The translations under genes and the position numbers were made by a program. From IMG/VR virus record IMGVR_UViG_3300030019_000001: 64,000 nt of DNA; one strand, given 5' to 3'. Within the stretch, counting starts at the first letter, position 1, and every line of letters starts with the position of its first letter. Positions 797-60,872 of this stretch are shown here, in pieces. The DNA comes from a virus (Duplodnaviria > Heunggongvirae > Uroviricota > Caudoviricetes). A model generated the notes under the pieces. The model was given only the letters and a program-made list of their open reading frames with translations. It did no database searches and was not told where the DNA came from.

Positions 797-1900
797 ATGT
801 CAGATGAACATTATAGAATATATTTTCAAAGAAAATTTAAAACCAGTAAAAAATATAATGACTTTTACAATACATTATTAGATTTAGATATCAAAAATTT
901 ATTTGAGGTTTTACATAAGTTAAGATTACCTAATGGTTTTTATAAAGCATCAGTTTCTAACGATTATAGTTATAGTTGGTTGAGAGATAATTTTTTTTGT
1001 TCATTTCCAGAATTGTGGAATGATACAGAAAAATATATTCAAACATATCAAACCTGGTTAGATTATTATAAAAATATTGAAACACAATATGGAAAATTTT
1101 CATCTCTAATCAATAAGAAAAAAATAGATTTTGATTGGGAATTTCCAAATCCAAGAATAAATATAGATTTAACAGAAATTCATTCTGGTTGGAATCATAT
1201 TCAAATTGATCAAATAGGATATTTTCTATATGGAATAGCTATTGGTGAAAAAAATGGGTTAAATATAATTAGAGATAAAACTGACATCGATATTATATCA
1301 ACTGTGATTAAATTATTAGATGCTATTGATTATCATACTGTACCAGAATCTGGTGCATGGGAAGAAGGTAAAGAGGCGCCAAGAGCATCTACTATTGGAG
1401 TGATTGTTGCTGGATTAACATCAATTAAAATGTGTGATAAAATTGACGTCAATATTCCTGAACATTTAATAGAAAATGGTATTGAAACATTGAATGGTAT
1501 ATTACCAAATGAAACACCAACACGAAAATATGATTTAGCTCAATTATTTCTTATCTATCCATTTAATTTATTAACTGTAGAAATGTCAAAAACTATATTA
1601 AAAAATATAGAGGATAATTTATTAGATGAGAATGGAGTATATAGATATTTAGATGATAAATATTATAACACAAATGGCGAAGCAACTTGGTTATTCGGAC
1701 TAAGCTATTTAGGCTTAATATATTGTCAATTAGGGGAAAAAGAGAAAGCAAAATATTTTTATGAAAAAATTGTAAATGAATCTATTGACTATGAAATACC
1801 CGAATTGTATTATCATGGAACAAAAACTCCAAATGATAATAATCCTCTAAGTTGGAGTATAGCAATGACTATTGAATTGGCTCACATGCTTAAAAATTAA
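797..1900 (+). CDS. glycoside hydrolase family 15 (glucoamylase-like) protein
   Basis: SYSWLRDNFF matches the GH15 YTWTRD active-site motif, and ESGAWEEGKE matches the LWEE general-acid region. The length and predicted (alpha/alpha)6 fold are plausible. Confidence 0.5.
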   Translation: MSDEHYRIYFQRKFKTSKKYNDFYNTLLDLDIKNLFEVLHKLRLPNGFYKASVSNDYSYSWLRDNFFCSFPELWNDTEKYIQTYQTWLDYYKNIETQYGKFSSLINKKKIDFDWEFPNPRINIDLTEIHSGWNHIQIDQIGYFLYGIAIGEKNGLNIIRDKTDIDIISTVIKLLDAIDYHTVPESGAWEEGKEAPRASTIGVIVAGLTSIKMCDKIDVNIPEHLIENGIETLNGILPNETPTRKYDLAQLFLIYPFNLLTVEMSKTILKNIEDNLLDENGVYRYLDDKYYNTNGEATWLFGLSYLGLIYCQLGEKEKAKYFYEKIVNESIDYEIPELYYHGTKTPNDNNPLSWSIAMTIELAHMLKN

Positions 1901-1982: not shown

Positions 1983-2597
1983 TCATTCTGGTATTATTCT
2001 AATTTTAGGTCTTTCAGTAGTTTTTGTTATTTTATTTTTTAGTATTTCATCATGTTCGTTAAGCTTAATTAATCCGAATATAGCATAATTAATCATATCA
2101 AAATAATTTGCATCTATACCTTCAGAAATTGTAGTTTTTCCATCATTATCTTCAATTTGTTTAGTTCTATAAATCTTCATTAAAATTAAATCTGTGTATG
2201 ATTCCATTCTCATTGTTCTCCAAGCCTCATCATAATCATGATTTTTATTTAGCATCAATTCTTTAGCATTCTGTATATATTTAGTATATAATTCAATACC
2301 TTTATCATATGATAAATCATCTGAATCAGAATATCCAAGTTCTAATTGAATTAGCCCCATTATACCATAATTCACAATTGCTATTAGCTCAGAATTTATT
2401 CCTTCATCAATTTTTTTATCTAATTTAGTTTCTATACTTCTAATTCGTCTCGCTTTTATGAATATTTGATCTGTGACAGATTTTTGTCTTAAAATTCTCC
2501 AAGATGCGCCATAATCTTTCATTTTCTTCATATAAATATTTGAACAAATACTTATTACATTATCAAATTCCTCAATTGTTTTATTTGTATTACTCAT
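1983..2597 (-). CDS. hypothetical protein with internal tandem-duplicated ~90 aa domain
   Basis: Two repeats: DYGASWRILRQKSVTDQIFIKARRIRSIE and HDYDEAWRTMRMESYTDLILMKIYRTKQIE. Confidence 0.5.
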   Translation of the reverse strand: MSNTNKTIEEFDNVISICSNIYMKKMKDYGASWRILRQKSVTDQIFIKARRIRSIETKLDKKIDEGINSELIAIVNYGIMGLIQLELGYSDSDDLSYDKGIELYTKYIQNAKELMLNKNHDYDEAWRTMRMESYTDLILMKIYRTKQIEDNDGKTTISEGIDANYFDMINYAIFGLIKLNEHDEILKNKITKTTERPKIRIIPE

Positions 2598-13233: not shown

Positions 13234-13830
13234 ATGGCTAAACTTTTTTATAGATATTCAACTATGAATGCTGGAAAATCTATTGATATATTAAGATGTA
13301 ATCATAATTATATTGAAAATGGTAAACGAACAATGTGTTTCACATCAGGTAAAGATGATAGATATGGAGTTGGAAAAATAACATCAAGAATAGGTATTTC
13401 AATTGATGCTACACCAGTTTATGATGATACTGATATATTTGATATAGTAGATAAAGACATCAAAGATAATAATAAGTTAGAAATTTCTTGCATTTTTGTC
13501 GATGAGGTTCAATTTTTAACTAAATCTCATATATTTCAACTATTAGATATAGTAGATGAATTTAATATTCCTGTTATGGCGTATGGTTTGAGGTCAAATT
13601 ATATGTTACAACCCTTTGAAAGTTCAAAATATTTAATGGCGTTATCTGATCAAATTGAAGAGATAAAAACAATTTGTTTCGAATGCAAAACTAAAAAGGC
13701 AATCATTAATACAAAGATAACTGATGGTAAAATTGTTACTGATGGAGAAGAAATTATAATAGGAGGTAATGATAGTTACAAACCGTTATGTAGAAAATGT
13801 TATAAAAAATTATTAAAAGAACAAAAATGA
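13234..13830 (+). CDS. tdk: thymidine kinase
   Basis: P-loop YSTMNAGKS, IFVDEVQF, and C-terminal zinc ribbon CFECKTKKA...CRKCY. Confidence 0.85.
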   Translation: MAKLFYRYSTMNAGKSIDILRCNHNYIENGKRTMCFTSGKDDRYGVGKITSRIGISIDATPVYDDTDIFDIVDKDIKDNNKLEISCIFVDEVQFLTKSHIFQLLDIVDEFNIPVMAYGLRSNYMLQPFESSKYLMALSDQIEEIKTICFECKTKKAIINTKITDGKIVTDGEEIIIGGNDSYKPLCRKCYKKLLKEQK

Positions 13831-15647: not shown

Positions 15648-16199
15648 TTATTTACACAAACGATCTGATGCAGAACTTGATGCAAAACTATCTGGCTTTC
15701 CCATTACTTTATATTTTTCTCCACATAACCATCCCATAACATCGTTATAAACCTTATTTGATTTGTTATTTGACATTTTTGCACCATTCCTTGTTGTTTT
15801 TTTTTCATTCAAATCCACATGAATTTCTACCAACTTATTTGGAGTTGAGTCATCATAATGATTTTTATTAAATTTATACTTGTAATTATTATCACTTAAT
15901 GTTTCATTAATAGATTCTGCTACATCATGAGCTAACAACGCTTCATTCCACAATTTAGTCACAATATCTTTAACTTTAGGCTCAGTATATGTTGCATAAA
16001 CCACATGAGCACCATTATTTTTTTGATCATTGTAAAAAACAACAGAAATAGCATATTTGGTTCTATGCATATGACTATCTGAATCACAACCAACTATTAC
16101 TTTGGTGTCATTATCAATATTTTTTACATAATTTAATACATAATCATTTATGCTTTCAATTTTTTCACCATTTACTTTTTTCCATGCTAATTTTTTCAT
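15648..16199 (-). CDS. hypothetical protein
   Basis: 183 aa ORF. Confidence 0.55.
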   Translation of the reverse strand: MKKLAWKKVNGEKIESINDYVLNYVKNIDNDTKVIVGCDSDSHMHRTKYAISVVFYNDQKNNGAHVVYATYTEPKVKDIVTKLWNEALLAHDVAESINETLSDNNYKYKFNKNHYDDSTPNKLVEIHVDLNEKKTTRNGAKMSNNKSNKVYNDVMGWLCGEKYKVMGKPDSFASSSASDRLCK

Positions 16200-23393: not shown

Positions 23394-24071
23394 ATGAAAA
23401 AGAAAATAGTAGTATTTACTGGTGCTGGAATAAGTGCAGAAAGCGGAATTCAAACTTTCAGGGATTCTGACGGACTTTGGGAGCAATATGATGTTAAAGA
23501 CGTCGCAACGATTGATGGTTGGAGGAAAGATAGAAAATTGGTATTAAAATTTTACAATGAAAGGCATAAACAATTAGATACAGTAGAACCTAATTCTGCA
23601 CATTACTTTCTTGCTGAATTAGAACAGAAATATGATGTTCAGATAGTGACGCAAAATGTGGACGATTTACATGAGAGAGCAGGCAGTACAAATGTGTTAC
23701 ATCTCCATGGACAATTAACAAAGATGAGAGCATTTAACAATAATACTGTTTATGATTGGCCAAAAGACTTTGATATTCAAACAGATAGTGTAGATGAAAA
23801 TGGTGATACATTACGACCACATATTGTTTGGTTCGGTGAAGATGTACCAAATATGGGTAAAGCTGAAAAATTAACAAAAGAAGCAGATATTCTTATTGTA
23901 ATTGGAACATCATTACAAGTTTATCCTGCAGCAAATTTGTTATATAAAGTAAATTTCAGAACACACACATATTATATTGATCCATCTGATTCTGATGTTG
24001 GTATTGATATTCGAAATTTCACTCATATTAAAGAAACAGCAACAAAAGGAGTCAAAAAATTAAAATTATAA
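23394..24071 (+). CDS. Sir2-family NAD-dependent protein deacylase/sirtuin (CobB-like), lacking the zinc-ribbon cysteines
   Basis: GAGISAESGIQTFRDSDGLW, QNVDDLHERAGS and LHLHG motifs are present. There are no Cys residues where the 4-Cys Zn module normally sits. Confidence 0.8.
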   Translation: MKKKIVVFTGAGISAESGIQTFRDSDGLWEQYDVKDVATIDGWRKDRKLVLKFYNERHKQLDTVEPNSAHYFLAELEQKYDVQIVTQNVDDLHERAGSTNVLHLHGQLTKMRAFNNNTVYDWPKDFDIQTDSVDENGDTLRPHIVWFGEDVPNMGKAEKLTKEADILIVIGTSLQVYPAANLLYKVNFRTHTYYIDPSDSDVGIDIRNFTHIKETATKGVKKLKL

Positions 24072-25845: not shown

Positions 25846-26118
25846 ATGAATAACACAAATTATAAAAAAGGAGATAAAGTTATTTGTATTAGAAATGATG
25901 GAGGATATGAAAATTCATTAACAATTGGAGAATCTTATAAAGTTATGTATATTGATAAAATAGATGGTGCTTATCATGTTCAAGTAAAATCAGATGATTT
26001 TGATGAAGGACGAGTTACTGTTTTTTTAAGTAGATTTATATCAACTACTGAATATAAAAAAATTCAAAGAAAAGAAAAATTAGAAAATATAAATAATTTA
26101 TTATCAAATGAATTTTAA
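25846..26118 (+). CDS. small paralog (KKGDKVICIRNDGGYE... / ...RKEKLENINN...)
   Basis: Family with a shared N-terminal beta-rich domain and the C-terminal tail. Confidence 0.5.
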   Translation: MNNTNYKKGDKVICIRNDGGYENSLTIGESYKVMYIDKIDGAYHVQVKSDDFDEGRVTVFLSRFISTTEYKKIQRKEKLENINNLLSNEF

Positions 26119-26362
26119 AAAAAGAGATGAAGTTGTGTGTATTGATAATACAGGAGGATATGAAAAATATTTAACAATTGGTAAAACATATGAAATTTGT
26201 TGTATTTACAAAGGAAAAATAACTAACTTAGATCATTTTAGAATATTATCTGACGCAAAACATGTATTATTTGTAAATCCATTAGGAACAATGTTTTTGT
26301 CACCCAATGAATTTGAAAGAAAAGAAAGAAAAGACAAACTAAATAGATTAAATTTAGTATAA
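26108..26362 (+). CDS. small paralog (KKRDEVVCIDNTGGYE... / ...RKDKLNRLNLV)
   Basis: As for 25846..26118. Confidence 0.5.
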   Translation: MNFKKRDEVVCIDNTGGYEKYLTIGKTYEICCIYKGKITNLDHFRILSDAKHVLFVNPLGTMFLSPNEFERKERKDKLNRLNLV

Positions 26363-26390: not shown

Positions 26391-26612
26391 ATGAAAATTT
26401 TAAGAAAAAAAGACACCTTTAAGAAATTACCTGATGCTAGTATAAATGATGTTGTATCAATAAAATCTTACATTGAACAAGGATGGAAATATTGTTCAAA
26501 AAAAGAATATAAGGATTTTTTCAAATCAGAAACATCTGAGAAATTAGAAGAAAAGACGATTGAGAAATCTGAAATTAAAGAAAAGAAGAAAGAAAAGAAG
26601 CACGGTAAATGA
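26391..26612 (+). CDS. K/E-rich small protein
   Basis: 73 aa ORF. Confidence 0.35.
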   Translation: MKILRKKDTFKKLPDASINDVVSIKSYIEQGWKYCSKKEYKDFFKSETSEKLEEKTIEKSEIKEKKKEKKHGK

Positions 26613-27043
26613 TTTTAGATATAATTAAATATGATGATTTAAACTCAGGAAAATTAAGAAAAATAAACGTGAACGTAAAAAAGGAGAATCCATTTCTACT
26701 TTCCTTAATCAAAAACATGTTTGAAACTCTTAATTATCACAAATTTGAATTTGGATTGTCTGCTCCTCAAGTTGGACACAATTTAAATTTATTTATAATT
26801 GATAATCCTGATTTAAAGGAAGTATTTATTAATCCAGAAATATATCTTGATGGACTTTTTATTCAAAATAAGGAGAGATGTCTAAGTTTACCTAATTTGG
26901 AATTTCCTATTAATAGAAGGTCAATTGTTATGATTAAATATTATGATATAAATTGGAATTATAAATTGTTGACATTAAAAGATTTGAACTCAATAGCTGT
27001 TCAACATCAATTTGATCATATCAATGGTAAATTGATAATATGA
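26609..27043 (+). CDS. peptide deformylase-like protein with HQxDH in place of HExxH
   Basis: Motif 1 is GLSAPQVG, motif 2 is ERCLSLP, and motif 3 is QHQFDHINGKL. The catalytic Glu codon reads CAA (Gln). Confidence 0.7.
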   Translation: MILDIIKYDDLNSGKLRKINVNVKKENPFLLSLIKNMFETLNYHKFEFGLSAPQVGHNLNLFIIDNPDLKEVFINPEIYLDGLFIQNKERCLSLPNLEFPINRRSIVMIKYYDINWNYKLLTLKDLNSIAVQHQFDHINGKLII

Positions 27044-27920: not shown

Positions 27921-28184
27921 ATGAAATCAATTCAATATAAAAAAGGTGAAAAATTTGTTTGCATTGATAATACATCAAAATACACTGGAGCGGAATTAGG
28001 CTACTGCTCTTTAAGATTATTAAAAATTGGTAATATTTATACATTTAATAACATAAATAGTTATGGAGAAATTGCTTTATTTGAAATACCAGGATTTAGT
28101 TTTCGAAAGCAAAGATTTATAAAATATTCTGAATTAAGAAAATTCAAATTGAAAGAATTAAACAATATAAATAAAGAATTATGA
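27921..28184 (+). CDS. small paralog (KKGEKFVCIDN... / ...RKFKLKELNNINKEL)
   Basis: Family member. Confidence 0.45.
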   Translation: MKSIQYKKGEKFVCIDNTSKYTGAELGYCSLRLLKIGNIYTFNNINSYGEIALFEIPGFSFRKQRFIKYSELRKFKLKELNNINKEL

Positions 28185-30303: not shown

Positions 30304-32187
30304 ATGGAATTATCAGAAATTTATCGATTATTAGAATACGGTATGTTTGAGTCTGCAGCAGTTGAAGTCAAAAAACTAAATAAGAAATATCGTGACGGAG
30401 AACCTGAAATCAGTGATCCTGAATATGATAAAGTAATTTCTACATTTCAAAAATTAGACCCAGATAATGAAATATTTGAATCTGGCGTTATTGAAGATAG
30501 CGAAGATGTCAATCCAGACAGAAAAGAAAATTTAAAATTTCCAATGTATTCATTGGATAAATATCACACAATTGTAGAAATTCACAAATGGTTGAAAAAT
30601 AAAGGGTTACCATTAGAAACAGAATTGGTTTGTACATCAAAATATGATGGTATGTCAATTCTTAAAGATGAATATAAACAACTTGCTTGGTCAAGAGGAA
30701 ATGGCATCACTGGCGAAACTATGCATTTGCACTACAAAAAGTTGAATGATGATAGTAAAAATATTAATTTGTTTACTATTGGAGAAATGATTTTTCCAAA
30801 ACAAGTTTTTAATAGTAGAGTATTTTATAGAGATAATGGTAAGCCATTTAAGAATGCTCGTAATATGATTGCTGGACTTAAAAATTCTGATACTCCATCC
30901 GAAGATTTGAAATTTGCTAAACATATTCGTTATGGTTATGCAAGCGAAGATTTCACTCAAGATAAATCTGAACAATTAGATTTCATCAGTACTAATTTAT
31001 CTAATGTACCATACAAAATATTCAAAGCAAAAGATTTGAATTTTGATGAGCTAAATGATATTTTTATTGAATGGGGTAAAGATTATGATATTGATGGACT
31101 TGTTTTTGATATAAATGACAAAGACATCAGAAAAAAACTTGGTCGTGAAACTAACAATAATCCATCATACGCAAGAGCATATAAGAATCCTGAATGGGCA
31201 GAATCAGCAGAAACAACCATACTTGAAATTGTAAAAGAAGTTTCGAAAAACGGATTACTTAAGCCAGTTGGGCGAATAATTCCAGTGAATATTGATGGTG
31301 CTACAGTATCACGTGTCACCTTAAATAACTATAAATTTGTAAAAAAACATGATTTAGGAGTTGGAAGTATTGTAAAAATAATTCGGTCAGGTTTGGTAAT
31401 ACCAAAGATTGTTCAAATTGTTTCTGCAACTGGATTTGAAATGCCAACTTTTGGTAGTTCAAAAGTTTTCTGGAATGAAAATGAAGTAGAATTAATGGTT
31501 GAAGGAACTGAAGAACAAGAAATTAAGAAATTGATATCTTTCTTTGAAATACTTGAAGCTGATAATGTATCAGAAGGTATTATCAATCAGTTATATAACT
31601 CTGGATATAAGACTGTTAAACAAATATTGGAATTAACACAATCAGAATTAGAATCATTAGATAGATTTGGTGAGAGAAGGGCTGAAATTATATATAATAG
31701 TATTCAATCTTCTATAAAAAATGTCAAATTATCTAAATTAATGCATTCTTCAAATTTCTTTGTGAATCTTGGTAGTAAAAAAATTGAATTACTAATGCAT
31801 TTTGAAGGTAAACCATCACTTGACGAAATTCTATCAATTAAAGGATTCTCAGATAAATCTGCACATGCATATCTTGATGCTTATGATACATTTTATGAAT
31901 GGTTACAAGATAAACCTCAAATAACAATTGAAACAAAAAAAGAAAATATTATTATGGTAACAAACGAATTAGAAAATGTGTCTTTTTGTTTTACTGGAAT
32001 ACGACGAAAAGATTTAGAAGAAATCATAATTTCAAAATCAGGTAAAGTTGCATCTGGTGTATCTAAAAATTTAACATACTTAGTTATGAAAGATAAAAAT
32101 TCTTTATCAAGCAAGGCAGTTAAAGCAGAAGAGATTGGAGTGAAATTGTTAAGTGTTGAAGATTTAGAAAAAATGTTGAACAATTAA
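30304..32187 (+). CDS. ligA: NAD+-dependent DNA ligase
   Basis: Adenylation KxDG motif (TSKYDGMSI), OB fold, HhH region, and a C-terminal BRCT-like segment (FCFTGIRRKDLEEII...TYLVM). Confidence 0.85.
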   Translation: MELSEIYRLLEYGMFESAAVEVKKLNKKYRDGEPEISDPEYDKVISTFQKLDPDNEIFESGVIEDSEDVNPDRKENLKFPMYSLDKYHTIVEIHKWLKNKGLPLETELVCTSKYDGMSILKDEYKQLAWSRGNGITGETMHLHYKKLNDDSKNINLFTIGEMIFPKQVFNSRVFYRDNGKPFKNARNMIAGLKNSDTPSEDLKFAKHIRYGYASEDFTQDKSEQLDFISTNLSNVPYKIFKAKDLNFDELNDIFIEWGKDYDIDGLVFDINDKDIRKKLGRETNNNPSYARAYKNPEWAESAETTILEIVKEVSKNGLLKPVGRIIPVNIDGATVSRVTLNNYKFVKKHDLGVGSIVKIIRSGLVIPKIVQIVSATGFEMPTFGSSKVFWNENEVELMVEGTEEQEIKKLISFFEILEADNVSEGIINQLYNSGYKTVKQILELTQSELESLDRFGERRAEIIYNSIQSSIKNVKLSKLMHSSNFFVNLGSKKIELLMHFEGKPSLDEILSIKGFSDKSAHAYLDAYDTFYEWLQDKPQITIETKKENIIMVTNELENVSFCFTGIRRKDLEEIIISKSGKVASGVSKNLTYLVMKDKNSLSSKAVKAEEIGVKLLSVEDLEKMLNN

Positions 32188-35130: not shown

Positions 35131-35886
35131 ATGCACAAAAATGAATTTAAAAAGTTTGCTACCAAACATTTAGGAATGAGTTCTACATTAGTAGATGATG
35201 CAACAAAATATCAAGCTGAAAATTATGGCTTATCTCCTCATGTTTTAGAAGAACGACAATTGAATGTAACTCAACTATCTGTGTTTGATAGACTTATGAT
35301 GGATAGAATTTTATGGGTGTCTGGTGACGTTGATGATACAATGTCTGATATTATTCAAGCACAATTATTATATTTAGAAGATTCTGATCCTCAAAAGGAC
35401 ATTACAATGCAAATTAATACAGGAGGCGGTAGTGTGACTCATGGGTTAGGAATCATAGATGTTATGAACTATATTAAACCTAATGTAGCCACAGTCAATT
35501 TAGGAATGTGCGCTTCAATGGGTAGTGTACTTCTATCATCTGGAGCAAAAGGTAAGCGTTCATCATTAATTAATTCAACAGTTATGCTACATCACGTTGC
35601 AGCAGGAACTAGTGGCAAAGTAGATGATACTCGTATTAGTCAAATGGAAACTGAAAAATACAATTTTTTACTATTCAAAATTCTTGCTCTTAATACTGAC
35701 AAGTCATTTGAAGAAATTCATGATTTTTGTCAAAGAGATATGTGGTTAAATTCTGATGAAGCTTTGAATTATGGTTTGATAGATAATGTCATTGGATTAG
35801 CTGATAATAAATCCAATTCAATTACAACTATGATGGATGGTTTTGATGAATATTATATGAAATATGTATTTAAACAAGTAAAATAA
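35131..35886 (+). CDS. clpP: ATP-dependent Clp protease proteolytic subunit
   Basis: DRLMMDRILWVSGDVDD...INTGGGSVTHGLGIIDVMNYIKPNVATVNLGMCASMGSVLL (catalytic Ser), MLHHVAAG (His) and the conserved C-terminal region align across the ClpP core. Confidence 0.85.
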   Translation: MHKNEFKKFATKHLGMSSTLVDDATKYQAENYGLSPHVLEERQLNVTQLSVFDRLMMDRILWVSGDVDDTMSDIIQAQLLYLEDSDPQKDITMQINTGGGSVTHGLGIIDVMNYIKPNVATVNLGMCASMGSVLLSSGAKGKRSSLINSTVMLHHVAAGTSGKVDDTRISQMETEKYNFLLFKILALNTDKSFEEIHDFCQRDMWLNSDEALNYGLIDNVIGLADNKSNSITTMMDGFDEYYMKYVFKQVK

Positions 35887-42184: not shown

Positions 42185-42272
42185 GCTCCTGTGATGGAAT
42201 GGTAGACATCCATGTTTTAGAAACATGTGCTGAACAATAGTAGGCGTGTCGGTTCAAGTCCGACCAGGAGTA
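42185..42272 (+). tRNA. tRNA-Leu (anticodon UAG), class II
   Basis: Acceptor GCTCCTG/CAGGAGT, anticodon stem CATGT/ACATG, loop TTTAGAA, T arm GTCGG-TTCAAGT-CCGAC. Confidence 0.65.
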
Positions 42273-42376
42273 CAATATATTCAATGATTAATCATTATGA
42301 TACAATTTATTTAAAAATATGTTCAATTTTTATTCTTTTTGTCATAGAATTTTTTATATATAAAATAAAAAATAAT

Positions 42377-43474
42377 ATGACATATAGAGTATATGAAGTT
42401 AGTGAAATCATAAAAATAATAGAAGAATATAATAATGGATCAAAACAGTCAGAATTAAGTAAAAAATATAATATACCAAGAAGTAATATTAGATATTGGT
42501 TAAATAACAATGAAAAATTCAATCAATATAATAAATTAGAAAATCAAAAAAAATTAAAAAATAATTGTGATATTAATAATTATTTATCTGATAAAAAATT
42601 AGAATATAATTATATATTAGGATTATATTTAGGAGATGGTCATATAATAAAAACAAAAAGATCATCATATCAAATTCGAATATTTTTAGATAGTAAGTAT
42701 TATAATATAGTAACTGAATGTGAAAATAATTTAAAAATATTATTTCCATTTAATAAAATAAATATTCATAAAACTAAATATAATATGTTTATTGTTTCAG
42801 TATATTCCAACTCTTTAAAATATTTATTTCCTCAAATAGGAAAAGGAGTAAAGCACAAAAGAAAAATAATACTAGAAGATTTTCAAATAAAAAATATAAA
42901 TCACAAAAACATAATACGTGGATTGTTTCATTCAGATGGTTGCTTATATAAAAATACAATAATTAAAAAAGAAGGAAAAAAATATTTCGGTTATTATTAT
43001 AATTTTTCTAATATGTCTAAAGATATAGTAGATATTTATTGTAACTCACTTGATATTATAAATATTCATTATACTATACAAATAAGTAAAGATAACTGTT
43101 ATAGAATAAACGTAAATAGAAGAGTAGATTTCAAAAAAATGTATGAGTTTCTTGGTGTTAAAAATTTAAATATCAAAAGTGAAGTTGATGAATATTATTA
43201 TAATATAATTAGAAATGATAGAATAAAAAAATTAAAATCAGGTAAAAAAGAAATTAAAATAAACAATAATTTAATAAAAAATTATTGTGCATGTGGAAAA
43301 GAAATTAAACACAATTCTAAACAATGTTATGACTGCTACAGATTATCTGAAAGAAAAGTAAAGAACAGACCAACAAAAGATGAGTTAAGATTAATGATAT
43401 CTGATACAAGTTTAGAAGCTGTTGGTAGAGTTTATGGAGTAACTGGTAAAGCAGTTAAGAAGTGGTTAAAATAA
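42377..43474 (+). mobile_element. LAGLIDADG homing endonuclease (two-motif) with C-terminal Cys4 zinc ribbon and HTH DNA-binding module
   Basis: Motif 1 is YILGLYLGDGHI, and motif 2 is IRGLFHSDGCLY. CACGKE...CYDCY and RPTKDELRLMISDTSLEAVGRVYGVTGKAVKKWL form the HTH. The ORF-track start (42227) lies inside tRNA-Leu(UAG), so the likely start is the ATG at 42377 (or 42284). Confidence 0.6.
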
Positions 43475-43475
43475 T

Positions 43476-43548
43476 GGCTTGGTATCCCAACGGCAGAGGA
43501 CGGCGTTTCAAATGCGTTTCAGTGAGGGTTCGAATCCCTCTCAAGCTA
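43476..43548 (+). tRNA. tRNA, class I, anticodon uncertain (best fold gives CAA)
   Basis: Acceptor GGCTTGG/TCAAGCT and a clear T arm GAGGG-TTCGAAT-CCCTC. The anticodon stem is weak (GGCGT/GCGTT with G-U pairs). Confidence 0.5.
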
Positions 43549-44091
43549 CACATTAAATTTCTTTGATGCTATAATTGATTTCATATCATTTATATCGCTT
43601 GACCAATATTTCATTGAATCATCATCAGTTTGAACAATTCCTGTGCCATCGTGAGGACCAGGATTCATTTTTTTAACCTTATAATCAATTGAAGCCCATC
43701 TAAAATTTTCAACTCTTTCTTTCTTTATTACTTTACACAATTCCGTATTATCCCAACCAAGCAGACAATAATCTCCAACAGATGGCAGATTTTCCAGATC
43801 TTCAATTTTTTTAGAATAGCTTTTTATTTGTTCACGTTTAACTAAAAAATTATTATTCCACAATTCATATTTATCAAATTTAACGTTATAGTGTTCTGTA
43901 TGTTCATTATATCCAATTATTTTACCTATTCTATATTTATAGTCTGTGTCATTTTCTCTAGGTATAAAATATTCAGGTATTTTAGATTCATAGAAATCTT
44001 CATCAAGTCTAACGTAATCATTTATTTCTGGTTCTGAATCACGTGTAAATTCTTTGGTATCGTAGAATTCGAATTTTTTAATATGTATCAT
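43546..44091 (-). CDS. array A member (MIHIKKFEF... / ...ASKKFNV)
   Basis: 181 aa ORF with a 4-nt overlap to the upstream member. Confidence 0.5.
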   Translation of the reverse strand: MIHIKKFEFYDTKEFTRDSEPEINDYVRLDEDFYESKIPEYFIPRENDTDYKYRIGKIIGYNEHTEHYNVKFDKYELWNNNFLVKREQIKSYSKKIEDLENLPSVGDYCLLGWDNTELCKVIKKERVENFRWASIDYKVKKMNPGPHDGTGIVQTDDDSMKYWSSDINDMKSIIASKKFNV

Positions 44092-48565: not shown

Positions 48566-50377
48566 ATGAGCAAACAATTAATTAATATTGGCTCATCTCC
48601 AAACGATGGAACTGGAGATAATTTAAGAGAATCATTCATTAAAATAAATTCCAATTTTAATGATGTTTATTCTTTTACAGGATATACAGGTACTTCTGGA
48701 ACATCAGGAATAAACGGAACTAATGGCACATCAGGAATAAACGGAACTACAGGTACTTCTGGAACTTCAGGTTTAAATGGATCTTCAGGAGGAGCATCAG
48801 TAACTAATGTTACATATAGTGAATTATTAGATTTGATAAATACTTTATCATTAACTATTGGTACACAATATTTAATTACTGATTATAGTACAGTACATAT
48901 AATTCCATATACTAGTGATTTAAATTCAGGTATAACTGAACCATTATTAGTTACCGCAATTGGATTAGATAAATTGAAACCAGAAGCTCATTCTTATTTA
49001 TATTCACAAGATGTAATTTATTATAATTTTAATAATAATCAAACAGTTGTACCAGGATGCACAACTGGCTATATTTACAGAAGAATTGATACAATACAAA
49101 ATAACGATTTTCCTTTTGATTTTAGAAATGTTAAATTTAGAAGATGGCAAATTAATGTTACAAATATATGGAATTCAGGAACAACATACAATTCCAAAGA
49201 TGTTGTATTATTTTCTGAAACCAATCAAATTTATATTTGCATAAAAAATAATACAACAAATATAAATCCAAATAATAATGATGATTCAAATGGTATTTGG
49301 CAGTTATTTGAGTATTATAATCTATCTTATATAAGTTGTACTGAATATAATCTAATTTTTGGTGATATAACCATGCCATGTTCAACAGGATATACTGATA
49401 GTTATATGTGGAGTGATTTTGACTACTATTATTCAACATCATATTCAAATATAATTAATATATCTGAATTAAACTCAAATATAATAAATGGATCAAATAA
49501 TGTTATATTAGGTGTCAATTTCAGAGATAATAATATAAATGTGAATTTCTATAACAATACTATTGGTAATGATTTTAATAACAATACTATTGGTCGTAAT
49601 TTTATTGGTAATAGTATTAGTGATAATTTTAAAAACAATTTAATTGATGATAATTTTAAAAACAATTCTATTGGAGATACATTTCAGGCTAATTCTATTG
49701 GATATGAGTTTAAATATAACTCTATTGGTTCTGCTGGCTCATATAATAAAATTGGTAGAATATGTAATAATAACATTATTAGTACAGAATTCACTGGAAA
49801 TAATATAGGTGATAGATTCTATAATAATATGATTTGTAAATCTTTTTCTAGTAATACACTTGGTGATGACTGTTATAATAACGTTATCGATAGCAATTTT
49901 AATGCTAATGTCATTGGAAACAATTTCAACATTAATATTATAAATACAGAATTTACCCGTAATTCTATTGGAAATACGTTTCAGATTAATTCTATTGGAA
50001 TACAATTTTTATATAATAATATAGGAGATTTTTTTACAAATAATATAATTGCTGATCATTTCACGTCAAATAGTATAAATTCATCTTTCTCTAGTAATAA
50101 CATTTCCAATTTATTTACTTCAAATAACATAGGTAGTACATTTGATTCAAATATAGTAGGTATTGGATTTACAAATAATAGTATTGGAAATTCTTTTAGA
50201 ATAAATACAATTTCTGATTATTTTCAAATGAATAGTGTTTGTGATAATTTTGGAGGATTAGATTTTACATTAGCAAGTTACGTATATTTACCTTATACAA
50301 AAGAATTGTATGTTGATGATACAAATACTAAAAAATTACAATATAATAGAATGATAATTGTAGATGCAAATGCATAA
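48566..50377 (+). CDS. collagen-like (G-X-Y) plus nonapeptide beta-helix repeat protein; tail-fibre-like
   Basis: GTSGTSGINGTNGTSGINGTTGTSGTSGLNGSSGG triple-helix repeats, then ~25 copies of an xxNxIGxxF 9-residue repeat. Confidence 0.55.
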   Translation: MSKQLINIGSSPNDGTGDNLRESFIKINSNFNDVYSFTGYTGTSGTSGINGTNGTSGINGTTGTSGTSGLNGSSGGASVTNVTYSELLDLINTLSLTIGTQYLITDYSTVHIIPYTSDLNSGITEPLLVTAIGLDKLKPEAHSYLYSQDVIYYNFNNNQTVVPGCTTGYIYRRIDTIQNNDFPFDFRNVKFRRWQINVTNIWNSGTTYNSKDVVLFSETNQIYICIKNNTTNINPNNNDDSNGIWQLFEYYNLSYISCTEYNLIFGDITMPCSTGYTDSYMWSDFDYYYSTSYSNIINISELNSNIINGSNNVILGVNFRDNNINVNFYNNTIGNDFNNNTIGRNFIGNSISDNFKNNLIDDNFKNNSIGDTFQANSIGYEFKYNSIGSAGSYNKIGRICNNNIISTEFTGNNIGDRFYNNMICKSFSSNTLGDDCYNNVIDSNFNANVIGNNFNINIINTEFTRNSIGNTFQINSIGIQFLYNNIGDFFTNNIIADHFTSNSINSSFSSNNISNLFTSNNIGSTFDSNIVGIGFTNNSIGNSFRINTISDYFQMNSVCDNFGGLDFTLASYVYLPYTKELYVDDTNTKKLQYNRMIIVDANA

Positions 50378-56361: not shown

Positions 56362-56395
56362 AAAAAAATCCTGATTTCTCAGGATTTTTTTTATT
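56360..56395. terminator. bidirectional intrinsic terminator
   Basis: aaaaaaaa-atcctga-tttc-tcaggat-tttttttt. Confidence 0.8.
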
Positions 56396-57857
56396 TATCG
56401 ATAAATAACTTATTATCAGGGGGCCAATGTATATGTGGCGCTTCCATTGTGTCAGTAATTACCCACAATATTTTTTCAAAGTATTTAGGAATACCATATT
56501 TAAATTTGTCTGGTACTGTACCTGCTGCATCTGTAAAATATATTACAAACGAAGGAATAGTTCCTTTTTGTATTAGATTCTTTTCAATCCATTGGAAAGG
56601 TGGAACAAAACTTGTACCTCCACCACCTTTTGCTTTGAAGTGTCTACCAAGAATTTCCTTAAATTTACCTTCATTCATTGAATCTCCGCTCTTTGTTCTA
56701 AGATTAATTCTTTCTATTCCTTTCACTTCATCATCACACCATATAATTATAGCTTCTTCAATTTTCTTTGAACCAAAAATACCATAAATTTCAGATGCAA
56801 ATCTACCAAGTGTTTCATCTCCAATTGATCCTGATGTATCAATACACAAAACTATTGTTCTGAATCCACTATCTTTAGGATATTTCAATCCTGGTAAATA
56901 CAATGGATCATCTTGTCCAATAAATCTTTTATTAAAATAACCATATTTAGGATTACTTGAAAAACATTTATTCATAAATTTAACTAATGATGCTTTCCAA
57001 TTGACTTTTGGTTTTCCAATTTTGTTAAACCATCTATTCAATGATTGAGATCCAGTTCCTTGATTATTACTTTTTGCATTATTTAATATTTCTCCCCATT
57101 TTTTTGCTAAATCTTCTGGACTTTCCATTTTGCTTAATTCATCACTACCATCGAATAATGTTGCACCTTTTTTATCATTTAAACTACCTGGAGCACACAA
57201 ATCACCTGCACCTGGAATTGAACTACCTGGCTTTCCTTGACCCTGCCCTGGTTTACCTTGTCCTGGTTTACCCTGACCTTCACCTTCTCCATCACCTTCT
57301 CCATCACCTTCTCCTTTTTTCTTTGGTTTCGCTTGCTCTTCTTTTTCAAGAATTACATAGATTTGCTCTGCACTCATATCACGATATTTTTCATCTAATA
57401 GAATATTTGTTGGTACTCTTAATATATCAGGTTTACTTGTTGCACCGTCAGGAGTTTCTTTACTCATATCAGATATTTGAAGATTAATTGCATAATCTGC
57501 TGCTTGATTCCATAAATCATGATTTCTGTTACCTTGTCTCATAAAGTGAAGATTTGCATTGTGCATAACTTCGTGTATCAAAACAAATGCTACTTCCTCT
57601 GTGTTTTTTAATACATTGTTAACAAATTCAGGATTATATAAAATATTTTGCCCATCAGTAGCCATAGTATTTATACCACTTCCTGGTGATGCTTCTGCAA
57701 TATTTAATTGAAAGAACAAATCTGCAAAGAAATTATAGTAAGCCATAACAGATGTTAAAGCTGCTCTTACTTTACCTTTAGCCATTTTGTTTAATTTTGG
57801 ATCAGTAAAATCTTCATTTATACCCAAAAAACTAAATGTATTGAATTTTTTTATCAT
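56391..57857 (-). CDS. VWA-domain protein with N-terminal HExxH metallopeptidase-like domain (MoxR-associated, DUF2201-like)
   Basis: FVLIHEVMHNANLHF carries HExxH. MIDAS motif IVLCIDTSGSIGDE. A low-complexity GEGDGEGDGEGEGQGKPGQGKPG linker separates the two. Confidence 0.65.
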   Translation of the reverse strand: MIKKFNTFSFLGINEDFTDPKLNKMAKGKVRAALTSVMAYYNFFADLFFQLNIAEASPGSGINTMATDGQNILYNPEFVNNVLKNTEEVAFVLIHEVMHNANLHFMRQGNRNHDLWNQAADYAINLQISDMSKETPDGATSKPDILRVPTNILLDEKYRDMSAEQIYVILEKEEQAKPKKKGEGDGEGDGEGEGQGKPGQGKPGQGQGKPGSSIPGAGDLCAPGSLNDKKGATLFDGSDELSKMESPEDLAKKWGEILNNAKSNNQGTGSQSLNRWFNKIGKPKVNWKASLVKFMNKCFSSNPKYGYFNKRFIGQDDPLYLPGLKYPKDSGFRTIVLCIDTSGSIGDETLGRFASEIYGIFGSKKIEEAIIIWCDDEVKGIERINLRTKSGDSMNEGKFKEILGRHFKAKGGGGTSFVPPFQWIEKNLIQKGTIPSFVIYFTDAAGTVPDKFKYGIPKYFEKILWVITDTMEAPHIHWPPDNKLFIDK

Positions 57858-57879
57858 TTTTATTTTTTATTTTTATTAA

Positions 57880-59415
57880 TTATTCTCCTGCCATAGTTTT
57901 TTGTAATACTACATGCCATTTTTTAGCAAAATCTAACCATACATCTTGATATTCAGTTTTAATATATGGATGTGCTTTTACAAAATAAGATGCAATAGCA
58001 ACAATTGCTTCATTTTCTTTACCTCTTGTAGCAAAATCATATACATTTTTAACTTCTTCCTTAGAAATATGTTTACCTTGTTTAAAAGTAGCAATAGCAA
58101 TTGAGCAAGCTCTAATTTGATCTTGTCTAGTTGGCCATTTTACATTTTTAGATTTTTCATTACCATCATAAATATCTTGTATATCTTGTTCACTAAAGAA
58201 CTCCTGTAATTTCATATAATTAACAAAATCCATAGCTGATTCTAATCCTACATATTTAGTGTATATTCTTTGAATTTCTGGATATGTTAATTTATTTGTC
58301 CAATCTTCATCTCTCTCATTGAATTCATCCTGTGATGCCATTTCCCATGTTCTTGGTGATGCCCAACCTGGACTTTTAGATTCTTTATCCAATCTATGAA
58401 AGTAATTAGGATGATACTGTAAATATGAAATAAGAAATGGATCAATGTCTTTTCTTGTTAATGCATATTTAACCCAATCTTCAACTGATGGTGAATAATT
58501 CACATGAGCAAAACGATTCCACAAAATAGGATCATCTGTCAAATCAGTAGTATCAATATCTTCTTTTCTATTGCCTGCTGCAATAATAATCCATCTTGGA
58601 GGTAAATCATAATCACCATGTTTACCACTTAATGCTAATGCCAATGATGCACTAAGAACCATTTGTGGTGCTCTGTTCATTTCATCAAAAAACATAATAC
58701 CACCTTTACCATTTCCATCACTAGTTGGAAATATCGCTGGTAATTTAGAAACAGTTTTATCATTTTCAATTTTAGGTACTCCTCTAAAGTCTGTAGGCTC
58801 AATTTGAGATAAATGCCATTCTTGAACAACAATATCTAAATCCTTTGCTACTTGATGTAATATTTCTGTTTTACCAATACCAGGAGCACCCCAAATAAAT
58901 AATGCATGTGTTTTTTTTCTAGCAAATTCTGAACCTTTATCATAGTTCTCTTGTTCATGTTGACCTGCTCTATGTAAATTCATATTATAAACTCTCTTTA
59001 TTCTTTCTTTAAGTTTCTCTACATTAACATTTCTCATTACTTCTTCATCTCCACTTGGATAATTCAACGTTACCATTGCTTCATCTACACTAGTTTCATT
59101 TTCAATTCTATCACCTTTTTCATTAAATCTTGAACGTATTTCAGATTCAATTTCTTCTGCTGTAGGCGTTTTAGCACCTTTCATATTATCAAGATAACCA
59201 TCAGGAATAATTACTTCTACAACATCCCTAGTTTTGCCATTCTCATCTACATAAGTTGGTATTTCTCCTTTATCTTTTAAATATTTTGAATAATATAGCC
59301 ATGCATTTTTACCAAATTTTGTTTTGAAAAAACCATATAACTTATTCCACGCATTTTTTAATAGATTTTCATTTAATTTATATTCTTCAGAATAACTATC
59401 ATATTTCTTTATCAT
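57880..59415 (-). CDS. MoxR-like AAA+ ATPase, paralog 1
   Basis: Walker A IWGAPGIGKTEI, Walker B GIMFFDEMNRA, sensor IIAAGNR. Confidence 0.7.
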   Translation of the reverse strand: MIKKYDSYSEEYKLNENLLKNAWNKLYGFFKTKFGKNAWLYYSKYLKDKGEIPTYVDENGKTRDVVEVIIPDGYLDNMKGAKTPTAEEIESEIRSRFNEKGDRIENETSVDEAMVTLNYPSGDEEVMRNVNVEKLKERIKRVYNMNLHRAGQHEQENYDKGSEFARKKTHALFIWGAPGIGKTEILHQVAKDLDIVVQEWHLSQIEPTDFRGVPKIENDKTVSKLPAIFPTSDGNGKGGIMFFDEMNRAPQMVLSASLALALSGKHGDYDLPPRWIIIAAGNRKEDIDTTDLTDDPILWNRFAHVNYSPSVEDWVKYALTRKDIDPFLISYLQYHPNYFHRLDKESKSPGWASPRTWEMASQDEFNERDEDWTNKLTYPEIQRIYTKYVGLESAMDFVNYMKLQEFFSEQDIQDIYDGNEKSKNVKWPTRQDQIRACSIAIATFKQGKHISKEEVKNVYDFATRGKENEAIVAIASYFVKAHPYIKTEYQDVWLDFAKKWHVVLQKTMAGE

Positions 59416-59447
59416 CTTATTATATTTTATTTTTATTATATATATTT

Positions 59448-60872
59448 TTAAATATTATCACCTCTTCTAAGTTTACCATCTTTACCTTCTTTCTTTCTTT
59501 CTTCTTCACGTTCCTTTTCGTCTAATTTCATAAGAAAGTTTACAAATGCAGTTGCACTAGCATATCCAACAAAATCTTCATATATATCTTTTACTTCATT
59601 ATATGACAATTTGTTTTTCCAATCAAATCCTCTTTCAAAATAATCTTCTTCTGATGCCATTTCCCATGTTCTTGGTGATGTCCAATTTGGTGCTTGATTA
59701 ACAGTTTTTAATCTATGATAATATTCTGGATTTTCTTTAATAAATTGTATAAGTTTAGGATTAATTGATTTTATATTTTTTGCATATCCAATCCAATCAG
59801 ATGGTTTTGGGGCAAAATTGATATGTTGAAATCTATTCCACAAAATCTTATCTTCTGTTAAATCTCCTGTACTTAAATCTGAACCTCTATTACCTGCTGC
59901 AATAACTATCCAATATTGAGGCAATTCATAACTACCATGTTTACCACTTAATGCTAATGATAATGATGCATCAAGAACCATTTGTGGTGCTCTATTCATT
60001 TCATCAAAAAACATTATACCACCTTTTCCGTTTTTACCATTGCTGGTAGGAAATATTGATGGTAATTTCCAAACAGTTCTTTCATCTTTTGAATCATCAG
60101 AGCCCATAATATTTTCAATTCTAGGAATACCTCTAAAGTCAGTAGGCTCAATTTGTGATAAATGCCATTCAATTACAGCAATTTCCAATTCTCTAGCTAC
60201 TTGATGCAAGATTTCTGTTTTTCCAATTCCAGGAGCACCCCAAATAAATATTGCATTTGTTTTTCTTCTAGAATATTCTCTACCATTTTCTCCTTCTTCT
60301 TGATGCCTACCTGCTCTAAGTGCATTCATTTTGTAAAGCTTAATTACTTCTTTTTTTAATTCTGCAACATCATCATTAAGAACTGTTGGATCTGGATGCT
60401 CTAAACTTACAAATTCATCATTATCATCTAAAACGCTTTCATTCAAAAATAAATTCATCAAACTTTCTTTAACTTTCTCCAATTCTTCTATTTCATCATT
60501 TACTACTTTTTCTTCTTCATCATTATCACCAACAGTTTCATCTGATCCGTCGATGCCAGGAATTTCTTTTTCCTTTTCATCTTCTACTGTTTCATCATCT
60601 GGTTGAATTTCAGATGCTTCTATTTCTTCATCAGAAGGCAAGTCAGACGTTTTAGCATATCCTGGAGGACATATAAAATCTATACCTCTTGGTAATTTAC
60701 CCTTTTTCTGTAAATACAATGCATAATATACCCATGCATGTTTTCCAAAATGTTGTTTAAAGAAACCAATAATCTTGTTTAAAATATCAGAAAATACATT
60801 TTCATTTATTTTTACACTTTCATTTTCTCTATACTCTTTAGAAAAATGATCATAATTTTTTAATGTTTTCAT
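59448..60872 (-). CDS. MoxR-like AAA+ ATPase, paralog 2 (with acidic N-terminal insert)
   Basis: Same motifs as paralog 1 (IWGAPGIGKTEI, GIMFFDEMNRA, VIAAGNR), plus a D/E-rich insert. Confidence 0.7.
   Translation of the reverse strand: MKTLKNYDHFSKEYRENESVKINENVFSDILNKIIGFFKQHFGKHAWVYYALYLQKKGKLPRGIDFICPPGYAKTSDLPSDEEIEASEIQPDDETVEDEKEKEIPGIDGSDETVGDNDEEEKVVNDEIEELEKVKESLMNLFLNESVLDDNDEFVSLEHPDPTVLNDDVAELKKEVIKLYKMNALRAGRHQEEGENGREYSRRKTNAIFIWGAPGIGKTEILHQVARELEIAVIEWHLSQIEPTDFRGIPRIENIMGSDDSKDERTVWKLPSIFPTSNGKNGKGGIMFFDEMNRAPQMVLDASLSLALSGKHGSYELPQYWIVIAAGNRGSDLSTGDLTEDKILWNRFQHINFAPKPSDWIGYAKNIKSINPKLIQFIKENPEYYHRLKTVNQAPNWTSPRTWEMASEEDYFERGFDWKNKLSYNEVKDIYEDFVGYASATAFVNFLMKLDEKEREEERKKEGKDGKLRRGDNI

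Follow-up and report, generated by a model that had tools for sequence, protein, structure and literature searches.

A conserved clade of huge-phage peptide deformylase homologs with glutamine in place of the catalytic glutamate

Among the auxiliary genes of viral metagenomes, those for peptide deformylase (PDF) are some of the most abundant, and the phage-encoded proteins are assumed to boost deformylation during infection. Huge phages carry PDF together with other translation genes (PMC7162821), and the smallest active type 1B PDF is itself a phage protein, the 137-aa enzyme of Vibrio phage Vp16 (PDB 5MTC; Grzela et al. 2017, PMC5591237), whose terminal Ile holds it locked in the active conformation; of the truncated viral PDFs, some do not complement (PMC5591237). 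In PDF catalysis, Glu133 (E. coli numbering) hydrogen-bonds and polarises the metal-bound water and relays a proton to the leaving amide (PMC4264029), a role for which Rajagopalan et al. 2000 is cited. The E133A substitution inactivates Bacillus subtilis DefA and is used as its catalytically dead form (PMC11194573). Substitutions of the first Gly of motif 1 are also costly: in AtPDF1B, kcat/Km falls about 1000-fold with G41Q or G41M because the enzyme is unable to close on its ligand (PMC3101196). Type 3 and accessory PDFs, including the second PDFs of S. aureus and of S. pneumoniae as well as archaeal and trypanosomatid homologs, have weak or no activity in some cases (PMC5591237, PMC12690207). 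A literature search for E133Q or for a phage PDF pseudo-enzyme returned no report of a conserved, selected clade of phage PDFs that lack the catalytic Glu. Here we describe a clade of this kind.

The homolog lies in a 64,000-nt stretch of the IMG/VR virus record IMGVR_UViG_3300030019_000001 (Caudoviricetes), hereafter the window, the features of which are collected in Table 1. The encoded protein (the window protein) matches the Pfam profile PF01327 (Pep_deformylase) over residues 4–144 of its 144 residues with E=1.5e-30 and 106.3 bits, the curated cut-off being 22.8 bits, and PHROG 2890 (peptide deformylase) matches as well. Searching PDB chains with phmmer, we found 80 PDF sequences. In the best alignments, to the P. 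falciparum (1RL4/1RQC) and T. maritima (1LME) enzymes, QHQFDHINGKLII stands opposite QHEFDHLNG.L.I with no gaps, and the segment AVQHQFDHINGKLII of the window protein is likewise gapless opposite FQHEFDHLNGTLFI in both of these enzymes. An alignment to E. coli PDF by BLASTP put motif 3 in the same register. An AlphaFold2 model built on 58 homologs had a mean pLDDT of 95 and a pTM of 0.89, and Foldseek matched this predicted structure to many solved PDFs with TM scores of 0.87–0.92 and rmsd values of 1.3–2.3 Å.

Table 1. Features annotated in the 64,000-nt window
Feature	Position	Strand	Basis or remark
Glycoside hydrolase family 15-like protein	797..1900	+	E=5e-15
DUF1599 'nucleotide modification associated' protein	1983..2597	-	E=1.4e-56
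S1 RNA-binding domain protein, 385 aa	9360..10517	+	PF00575, E=5.6e-22
Thymidine kinase	13234..13830		Pfam
RNase H-like protein	15648..16199		Pfam
SIR2-family NAD-dependent deacetylase homolog	23394..24071	+	
Three paralogous ORFs, 84-90 aa, flanking PDF	25846..26118, 26108..26362, 27921..28184	+	
Upstream ORF, 73 aa, lysine-rich	26391..26612	+	overlaps PDF start by 4 nt (ATGA, 26609..26612)
PDF homolog, complete ORF, ATG to TGA, 144 aa	26609..27043	+	minimal, type 1B-like, without C-terminal helix
Motif 1, EFGLSAPQ, residues 47-54	26747..26770	+	E. coli PDF alignment and family comparison
Motif 2, ERCLS, residues 89-93	26873..26887	+	E. coli PDF alignment and clade alleles
Motif 3, QHQFDHING, residues 132-140	27002..27028	+	PDB and E. 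coli PDF alignments
Codon CAA, Gln134, site of catalytic Glu (E. coli Glu133)	27008..27010	+	gapless alignments
Stop codon, one codon earlier than in relatives	27041..27043	+	protein ends ...GKLII
NAD-dependent DNA ligase	30304..32187	+	Pfam
ClpP protease	35131..35886	+	PF00574, E=1.7e-54
Four tRNA-Leu genes, anticodons TAA, TAA, TAG, CAA	42001..43549	+	
T4 gp9/10-like N-terminal domain protein	48566..50377		Pfam; collagen/tail-fibre-like matches
Two AAA ATPases and DUF2201 putative metallopeptidase/VWA protein, operon-like trio	56391..60872	-	Pfam

A sequence-only reading of this DNA had proposed that the catalytic Glu of HEXXH is replaced by Gln (motif 3 QHQFDH), and the gapless alignments to both the PDB enzymes and E. 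coli PDF confirm it: Gln134 occupies the Glu133 site, a mis-registered motif 3 is ruled out, and the metal ligands His133 and His137 (E. coli His132 and His136) are kept. The codon itself had been placed at 27010–27012, two nucleotides too far downstream of its position at 27008–27010, and Glu would be restored by C-to-G at 27008, not G-to-C as had been written. Alternative genetic codes leave CAA unaffected. The same reading described motifs 1 and 2 as conserved. This stands for their key residues, the transition-state-stabilising Gln54 (E. coli Gln50) and the metal ligand Cys91 (E. coli Cys90), but both motifs are non-canonical, with Glu47 and Arg90 replacing Gly. Set against the motif 1 consensus G-phi-G-phi-A-A-x-Q (updated to phi-G-phi-A-A-x-Q), the window protein has Glu47 for the first Gly (E. 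coli Gly43, AtPDF1B Gly41) and Phe48 for Ile/Val (E. coli Ile44), retains the second Gly, and has Ser for the first Ala of the AA pair; Vibrio Def2 is reported to tolerate Ala-to-Ser at the second Ala (PMC12690207). Motif 2 keeps the Leu and Ser of EGCLS, and Arg90 occupies its Gly position (E. coli Gly89), which is Arg or Lys in all of the closest alleles described below (EKCLS in some). At the C terminus Ile143 takes the E. coli Phe142 position, one residue follows and the chain ends; the Asp found here in relatives (E. coli Asp144) is missing. Of the residues expected of a competent PDF (EC 3.5.1.88), the three metal ligands are therefore present and the catalytic Glu is absent.

We found the identical protein (P0001) on at least 20 contigs, the longest of 711,471 bp, and coding DNA identical to that of the window at 8 loci in 8 different JGI and ENA assemblies, that is, in at least 8 independent samples. 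The protein occurs as at least nine alleles, 87–100% identical and located on contigs of up to 711 kb, all of which contain HQFDH and end in ...GKLII. P0002, P0003 and P0004 are 90, 88 and 87% identical to the window protein, and P0386–P0389 and an L024-type variant are further alleles. The sources of the diverged alleles were other samples and viral contigs of IMG/VR that are 58–235 kb long; in the protein collection their contigs reached 243 kb. CAA is the codon in all alleles for which DNA was examined, and frameshifts or internal stops were found in none of the at least nine. We refer to these sequences as the Gln clade.

Among the homologs listed with their motif, HE was present in 113 of 117, and HQ was confined to the four closest. 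All 84 short-type relatives (140–152 aa) have the Glu and 83 have the terminal Asp, so that the combination of Gln and a lost C-terminal Asp is unique to the Gln clade in this comparison. Cys91, His133, His137 and Gln54 do not vary among any of the sequences compared, nor do Gly49 and Leu50. In a neighbour-joining tree of 36 sequences with 200 bootstrap replicates, the Gln clade was monophyletic (200/200) and sister to the Glu-bearing proteins P0005–P0007 (197/200); it is nested among Glu-bearing huge-phage PDFs, and the nearest cellular relatives are type 1B-like PDFs of Flavobacteriales. The PDF loci are syntenic, with genes for an RNase H-like protein, SIR2, small ORFs, PDF and NAD-dependent ligase. 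Synteny and monophyly together indicate that the Gln-clade and Glu-bearing loci are orthologs and that Glu-to-Gln happened once, in the ancestor of the clade. The distribution of substitutions indicates that the active site was altered in two steps: the first, common to the Glu-bearing sisters P0005–P0007, comprises Gly43 to Glu, Val/Ile to Phe48, Ile to Ala130 and Leu to Asn127, with Gly89 also replaced in the sisters examined (by Arg in P0005 and Glu in P0006), and the second, found only in the Gln clade, replaced Glu133 by Gln and removed the terminal Asp. The related loci examined, from Gln and Glu clades alike, mostly have a small upstream ORF that either shares 4 nt with the PDF start or abuts it, and this conserved arrangement suggests that translation of the two is coupled. 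Several Gln-clade relatives have an extra gene of 121–124 aa 3' of the PDF stop, which is absent from the window.

To judge how often phage PDFs lack the Glu, we scanned 2.9 million viral contigs with the pattern QHQxDH(L/I/V/M/F)xGx(L/I/V/M/F). Ten of the 56 DNA matches were PDFs, and they fell into two lineages, the clade of the window (7 contigs) and the unrelated L046, L067 and L069. Both Glu patterns gave at least 120 matches each, with 217 true PDFs among the matches listed. Of 145 representatives of the nearest 50%-identity clusters, 138 had HE, one had HQ (P0321) and one had HN (P0326). By these counts loss of the Glu is rare, but other cases exist. L046 (IMGVR_UViG_3300025652_005534), L067, L069 and the protein P0121 are 164–169 aa long and have lost both the Glu (QHQMDH) and the Cys (EETSFSFP versus EGCLS.P); their nearest relatives, at most 61% identical, are canonical, and one relative, P0134, has Cys-to-Ser with HE intact. 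These losses suggest that catalytic residues disappear sporadically from phage PDFs. The metagenomic protein P0321 combines ETCLN with QHQYDH, and the metagenomic P0326 and P0390 combine ENRCLS with QHNIDH, with an Arg directly before the Cys as in the window protein. We also note a distinct, long-type PDF of 182 aa, with a C-terminal helix and canonical motifs, in L029 (IMGVR_UViG_3300037067_007156, 640 kb) and on a 422-kb contig (P0396). It is closest to PDFs of Flavobacteriia and Bacteroidales, and its presence in other huge phages suggests that such phages acquired PDFs at least twice.

Coding sequences of the Gln clade differ at many synonymous sites and few nonsynonymous ones (Nei–Gojobori; dS 0.53–0.89, dN 0.04–0.07), giving dN/dS of 0.05–0.13 with a median of 0.083 over 14 pairs. 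Such low ratios at high dS indicate that the protein is functional. The Glu-type loci retrieved from the viral-contig pattern scan contained no short LIID-type genes, and three extra Glu-bearing orthologs were added for a matched comparison. The resulting seven Glu-bearing orthologs had dN/dS of 0.095–0.41 (median 0.22) at similar dS, so that the ratio is lower in the Gln clade than among the Glu-bearing relatives sampled. The Gln-clade PDF is under strong purifying selection, and constraint was not relaxed after the Glu was lost. We conclude that the window protein is a genuine member of the PDF superfamily, folded and selectively maintained. Strong purifying selection is evidence of function, not of which function.

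The window has a G+C content of 23%. Its membership of IMG/VR and the related contigs of up to 711 kb indicate a huge tailed phage with a genome of up to about 0.7 Mb; the assignment to phages draws on the IMG/VR relatives, the T4 gp9/10-like protein, ORFans and tRNAs, the window containing no capsid or terminase gene. The host is probably a member of the Bacteroidota, judged solely from the nearest cellular PDFs. A tblastn search with five PDFs found no second PDF in the 64-kb window, and a query with the long-type L029 PDF matched no protein on the 711,471-bp or the 243,438-bp contig; direct reading covered 64 kb of the ~0.7 Mb. Several neighbouring genes deserve mention. The S1-domain protein resembles homologs of ribosomal protein S1 that have been described from huge phages, and the ClpP gene lies 8 kb downstream of PDF in the same long plus-strand gene block. 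SIR2 and the NAD-dependent ligase bracket the PDF region; both occur in most of the longer related loci, in an order relative to PDF that varies. The three paralogs that flank PDF are 29–40% identical (E=1e-4 to 1e-17) and form a small multi-copy family whose number varies between related phages. The trio of AAA ATPases and DUF2201 protein occupies the segment of highest G+C (0.30 versus about 0.23). A 415-aa ORF with a GTG start (42227..43474) shares sequence with the third tRNA-Leu gene (42185..42273) and directly adjoins the fourth (43476..43549); on these grounds the ORF is probably spurious, at any rate in its 5' part. Many further ORFs of the window had no family match.

Loss of the Glu, two further deviations from the canonical active site, retention of the metal ligands and purifying selection together favour a pseudo-enzyme. 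Our preferred reading, held with moderate confidence, is that the protein is a PDF crippled in catalysis and retained because its active-site cleft serves in binding. From what is known of PDF enzymology, without Glu133 the metal-bound water would not be deprotonated and no proton would pass to the leaving amide, and a bulky residue at the Gly43 position would block full closure on the substrate; turnover would be expected to fall several orders of magnitude below that of a normal PDF. The cleft would still bind metal and ligand, with hardly any hydrolysis. The protein would then not be a deformylase but a binding module or natural 'substrate-trap' that might hold N-formyl-methionyl termini, for instance, and deformylation would be supplied by the host's own essential PDF.

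The alternative that survives best, although we consider it unlikely, is that the protein is still a working deformylase, through a mechanism that does not depend on Glu133 and is slow but sufficient at high expression, or through another general base. Glu47 of motif 1 could conceivably be that base, a water chain is a second candidate, and substrate preference may have shifted with a remodelled S1' pocket. Glu-to-Gln mutants of other HEXXH metalloproteases do retain a small residual activity. All metal ligands and Gln54 are kept under strong selection, and the changes of the first step that are common to the Glu-keeping sisters (G43E, V/I to F48, I to A130, G89R/E) look like remodelling rather than decay; sisters that combine G43E and G89R/E with an intact Glu indicate that the family may tolerate unusual active sites. 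Type 3 PDFs with altered, non-canonical motifs can be active, those of T. brucei being the case cited in PMC12690207. Weighing against activity, the Glu is present in 84/84 close relatives and in 138/145 of the nearest cluster representatives, the accepted mechanism assigns it the proton relay (PMC4264029), and its replacement in E133A abolishes activity (PMC11194573). When the bulky replacement of Gly43 is added, which alone costs about 1000-fold (PMC3101196), a very large loss is expected.

Less probable again is a non-catalytic moonlighting role exerted by a surface outside the cleft, with Glu-to-Gln merely tolerated. The precedent is B. subtilis DefA, which inhibits the kinase PtkA and, as E133A, retains this inhibition in full (PMC11194573), so PDF folds can have roles that are independent of activity; purifying selection over the whole protein would fit such a role. 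The metal ligands and Gln54 are, however, invariant in all Gln alleles, which is unexpected if the cleft is irrelevant, although a structural metal could explain it, and the strict retention of the Glu in all other relatives indicates that catalysis matters in the rest of the family. We give a still slimmer chance to one specific form of the preferred binding role, a phage 'substrate-trap' deformylase that reads or shields N-formyl-methionine termini. Such a protein might preserve the formyl group on selected nascent proteins, titrate those host proteins that are formylated or deliver them to a protease such as the phage ClpP.

That the gene is a decaying or neutral relic, its activity dispensable and the gene heading for loss, is very unlikely. 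The host has an essential PDF, which makes a phage copy dispensable in principle, and sporadically degenerate phage PDFs do exist, such as L046, L067 and L069 without Cys and Glu, but the dN/dS of the Gln clade, at near-saturated synonymous divergence, is below that of its catalytically intact relatives, its at least nine alleles have intact reading frames, and both the gene order and the overlap with the upstream ORF have been retained. The sequence-only reading had also raised a sequencing error or recent mutation; that the codon is a mistake of sequencing or assembly, or a recent change private to one genome, can practically be dismissed: although a single nucleotide change would restore the Glu, the same codon is found in at least 20 independent JGI, ENA and Logan assemblies and at least 8 independent samples, and CAA persists in at least nine alleles, among which up to 13% of residues and about half of the synonymous sites are different (dS 0.5–0.9).

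A Glu-less clade that is under selection at least as strong as its intact relatives argues that some phage PDFs are kept for a role other than turnover, and cautions that not every phage match to PF01327 is an active deformylase. The Gln clade and its Glu-bearing sisters, at 70–74% identity, form matched natural pairs that could show what a PDF fold does when it does not deformylate, and whether a Glu133-independent mechanism exists. If true, the substrate trap would add a new way in which a virus interferes with N-terminal protein maturation, and no dedicated fMet-binding pseudo-enzyme would have been described before it.

Among known systems, the Vp16 PDF is like the window protein in being phage encoded and minimal, in ending right after motif 3 without the eta3/alpha3 ribosome-binding C-domain, and in having Ile where E. 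coli PDF has Phe142 (the window protein reads GKLII, the Vp16 protein VTI). The similarity is distant (E=1.3e-10), and unlike those of the window protein the motifs of the Vp16 enzyme are canonical, HEXXH included; its activity has been shown in vivo and in vitro. The PDF of cyanophage S-SSM7 (PDB 3UWA) and other marine phage PDFs, which count as auxiliary metabolic genes, are also phage borne with a shortened C terminus, but they are equally set apart by canonical motifs and measured deformylase activity, and are distant in sequence (E=2e-7). Much closer are the Glu-bearing huge-phage orthologs P0005–P0083, which at 145 aa and with a ...LIID end belong to the same length class, are 54–74% identical to the window protein, share its neighbourhood of SIR2, small ORFs and NAD-dependent ligase, and are the direct evolutionary source of the Gln clade; they differ in having HE[FY]DH (84/84), the terminal Asp (83/84) and, in most, GVGLAAPQ and EGCLS.

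Type 3 and inactive accessory PDFs resemble the window protein as natural homologs with substitutions in conserved motifs. They are cellular paralogs that are described as altered in motifs I and II and make up a phylogenetic type of their own, whereas the window protein is a type 1B-like phage PDF that appears to have lost the motif III Glu recently, and it is set apart from type 3 by its nesting among short huge-phage PDFs, in a tree built without type 3 references. The engineered E133A forms of the E. coli and B. subtilis enzymes lack the same residue and are dead but folded, and DefA in this form keeps its non-enzymatic function (PMC11194573). Those are laboratory mutants, whereas Gln134 is natural, fixed in its clade and maintained by selection.
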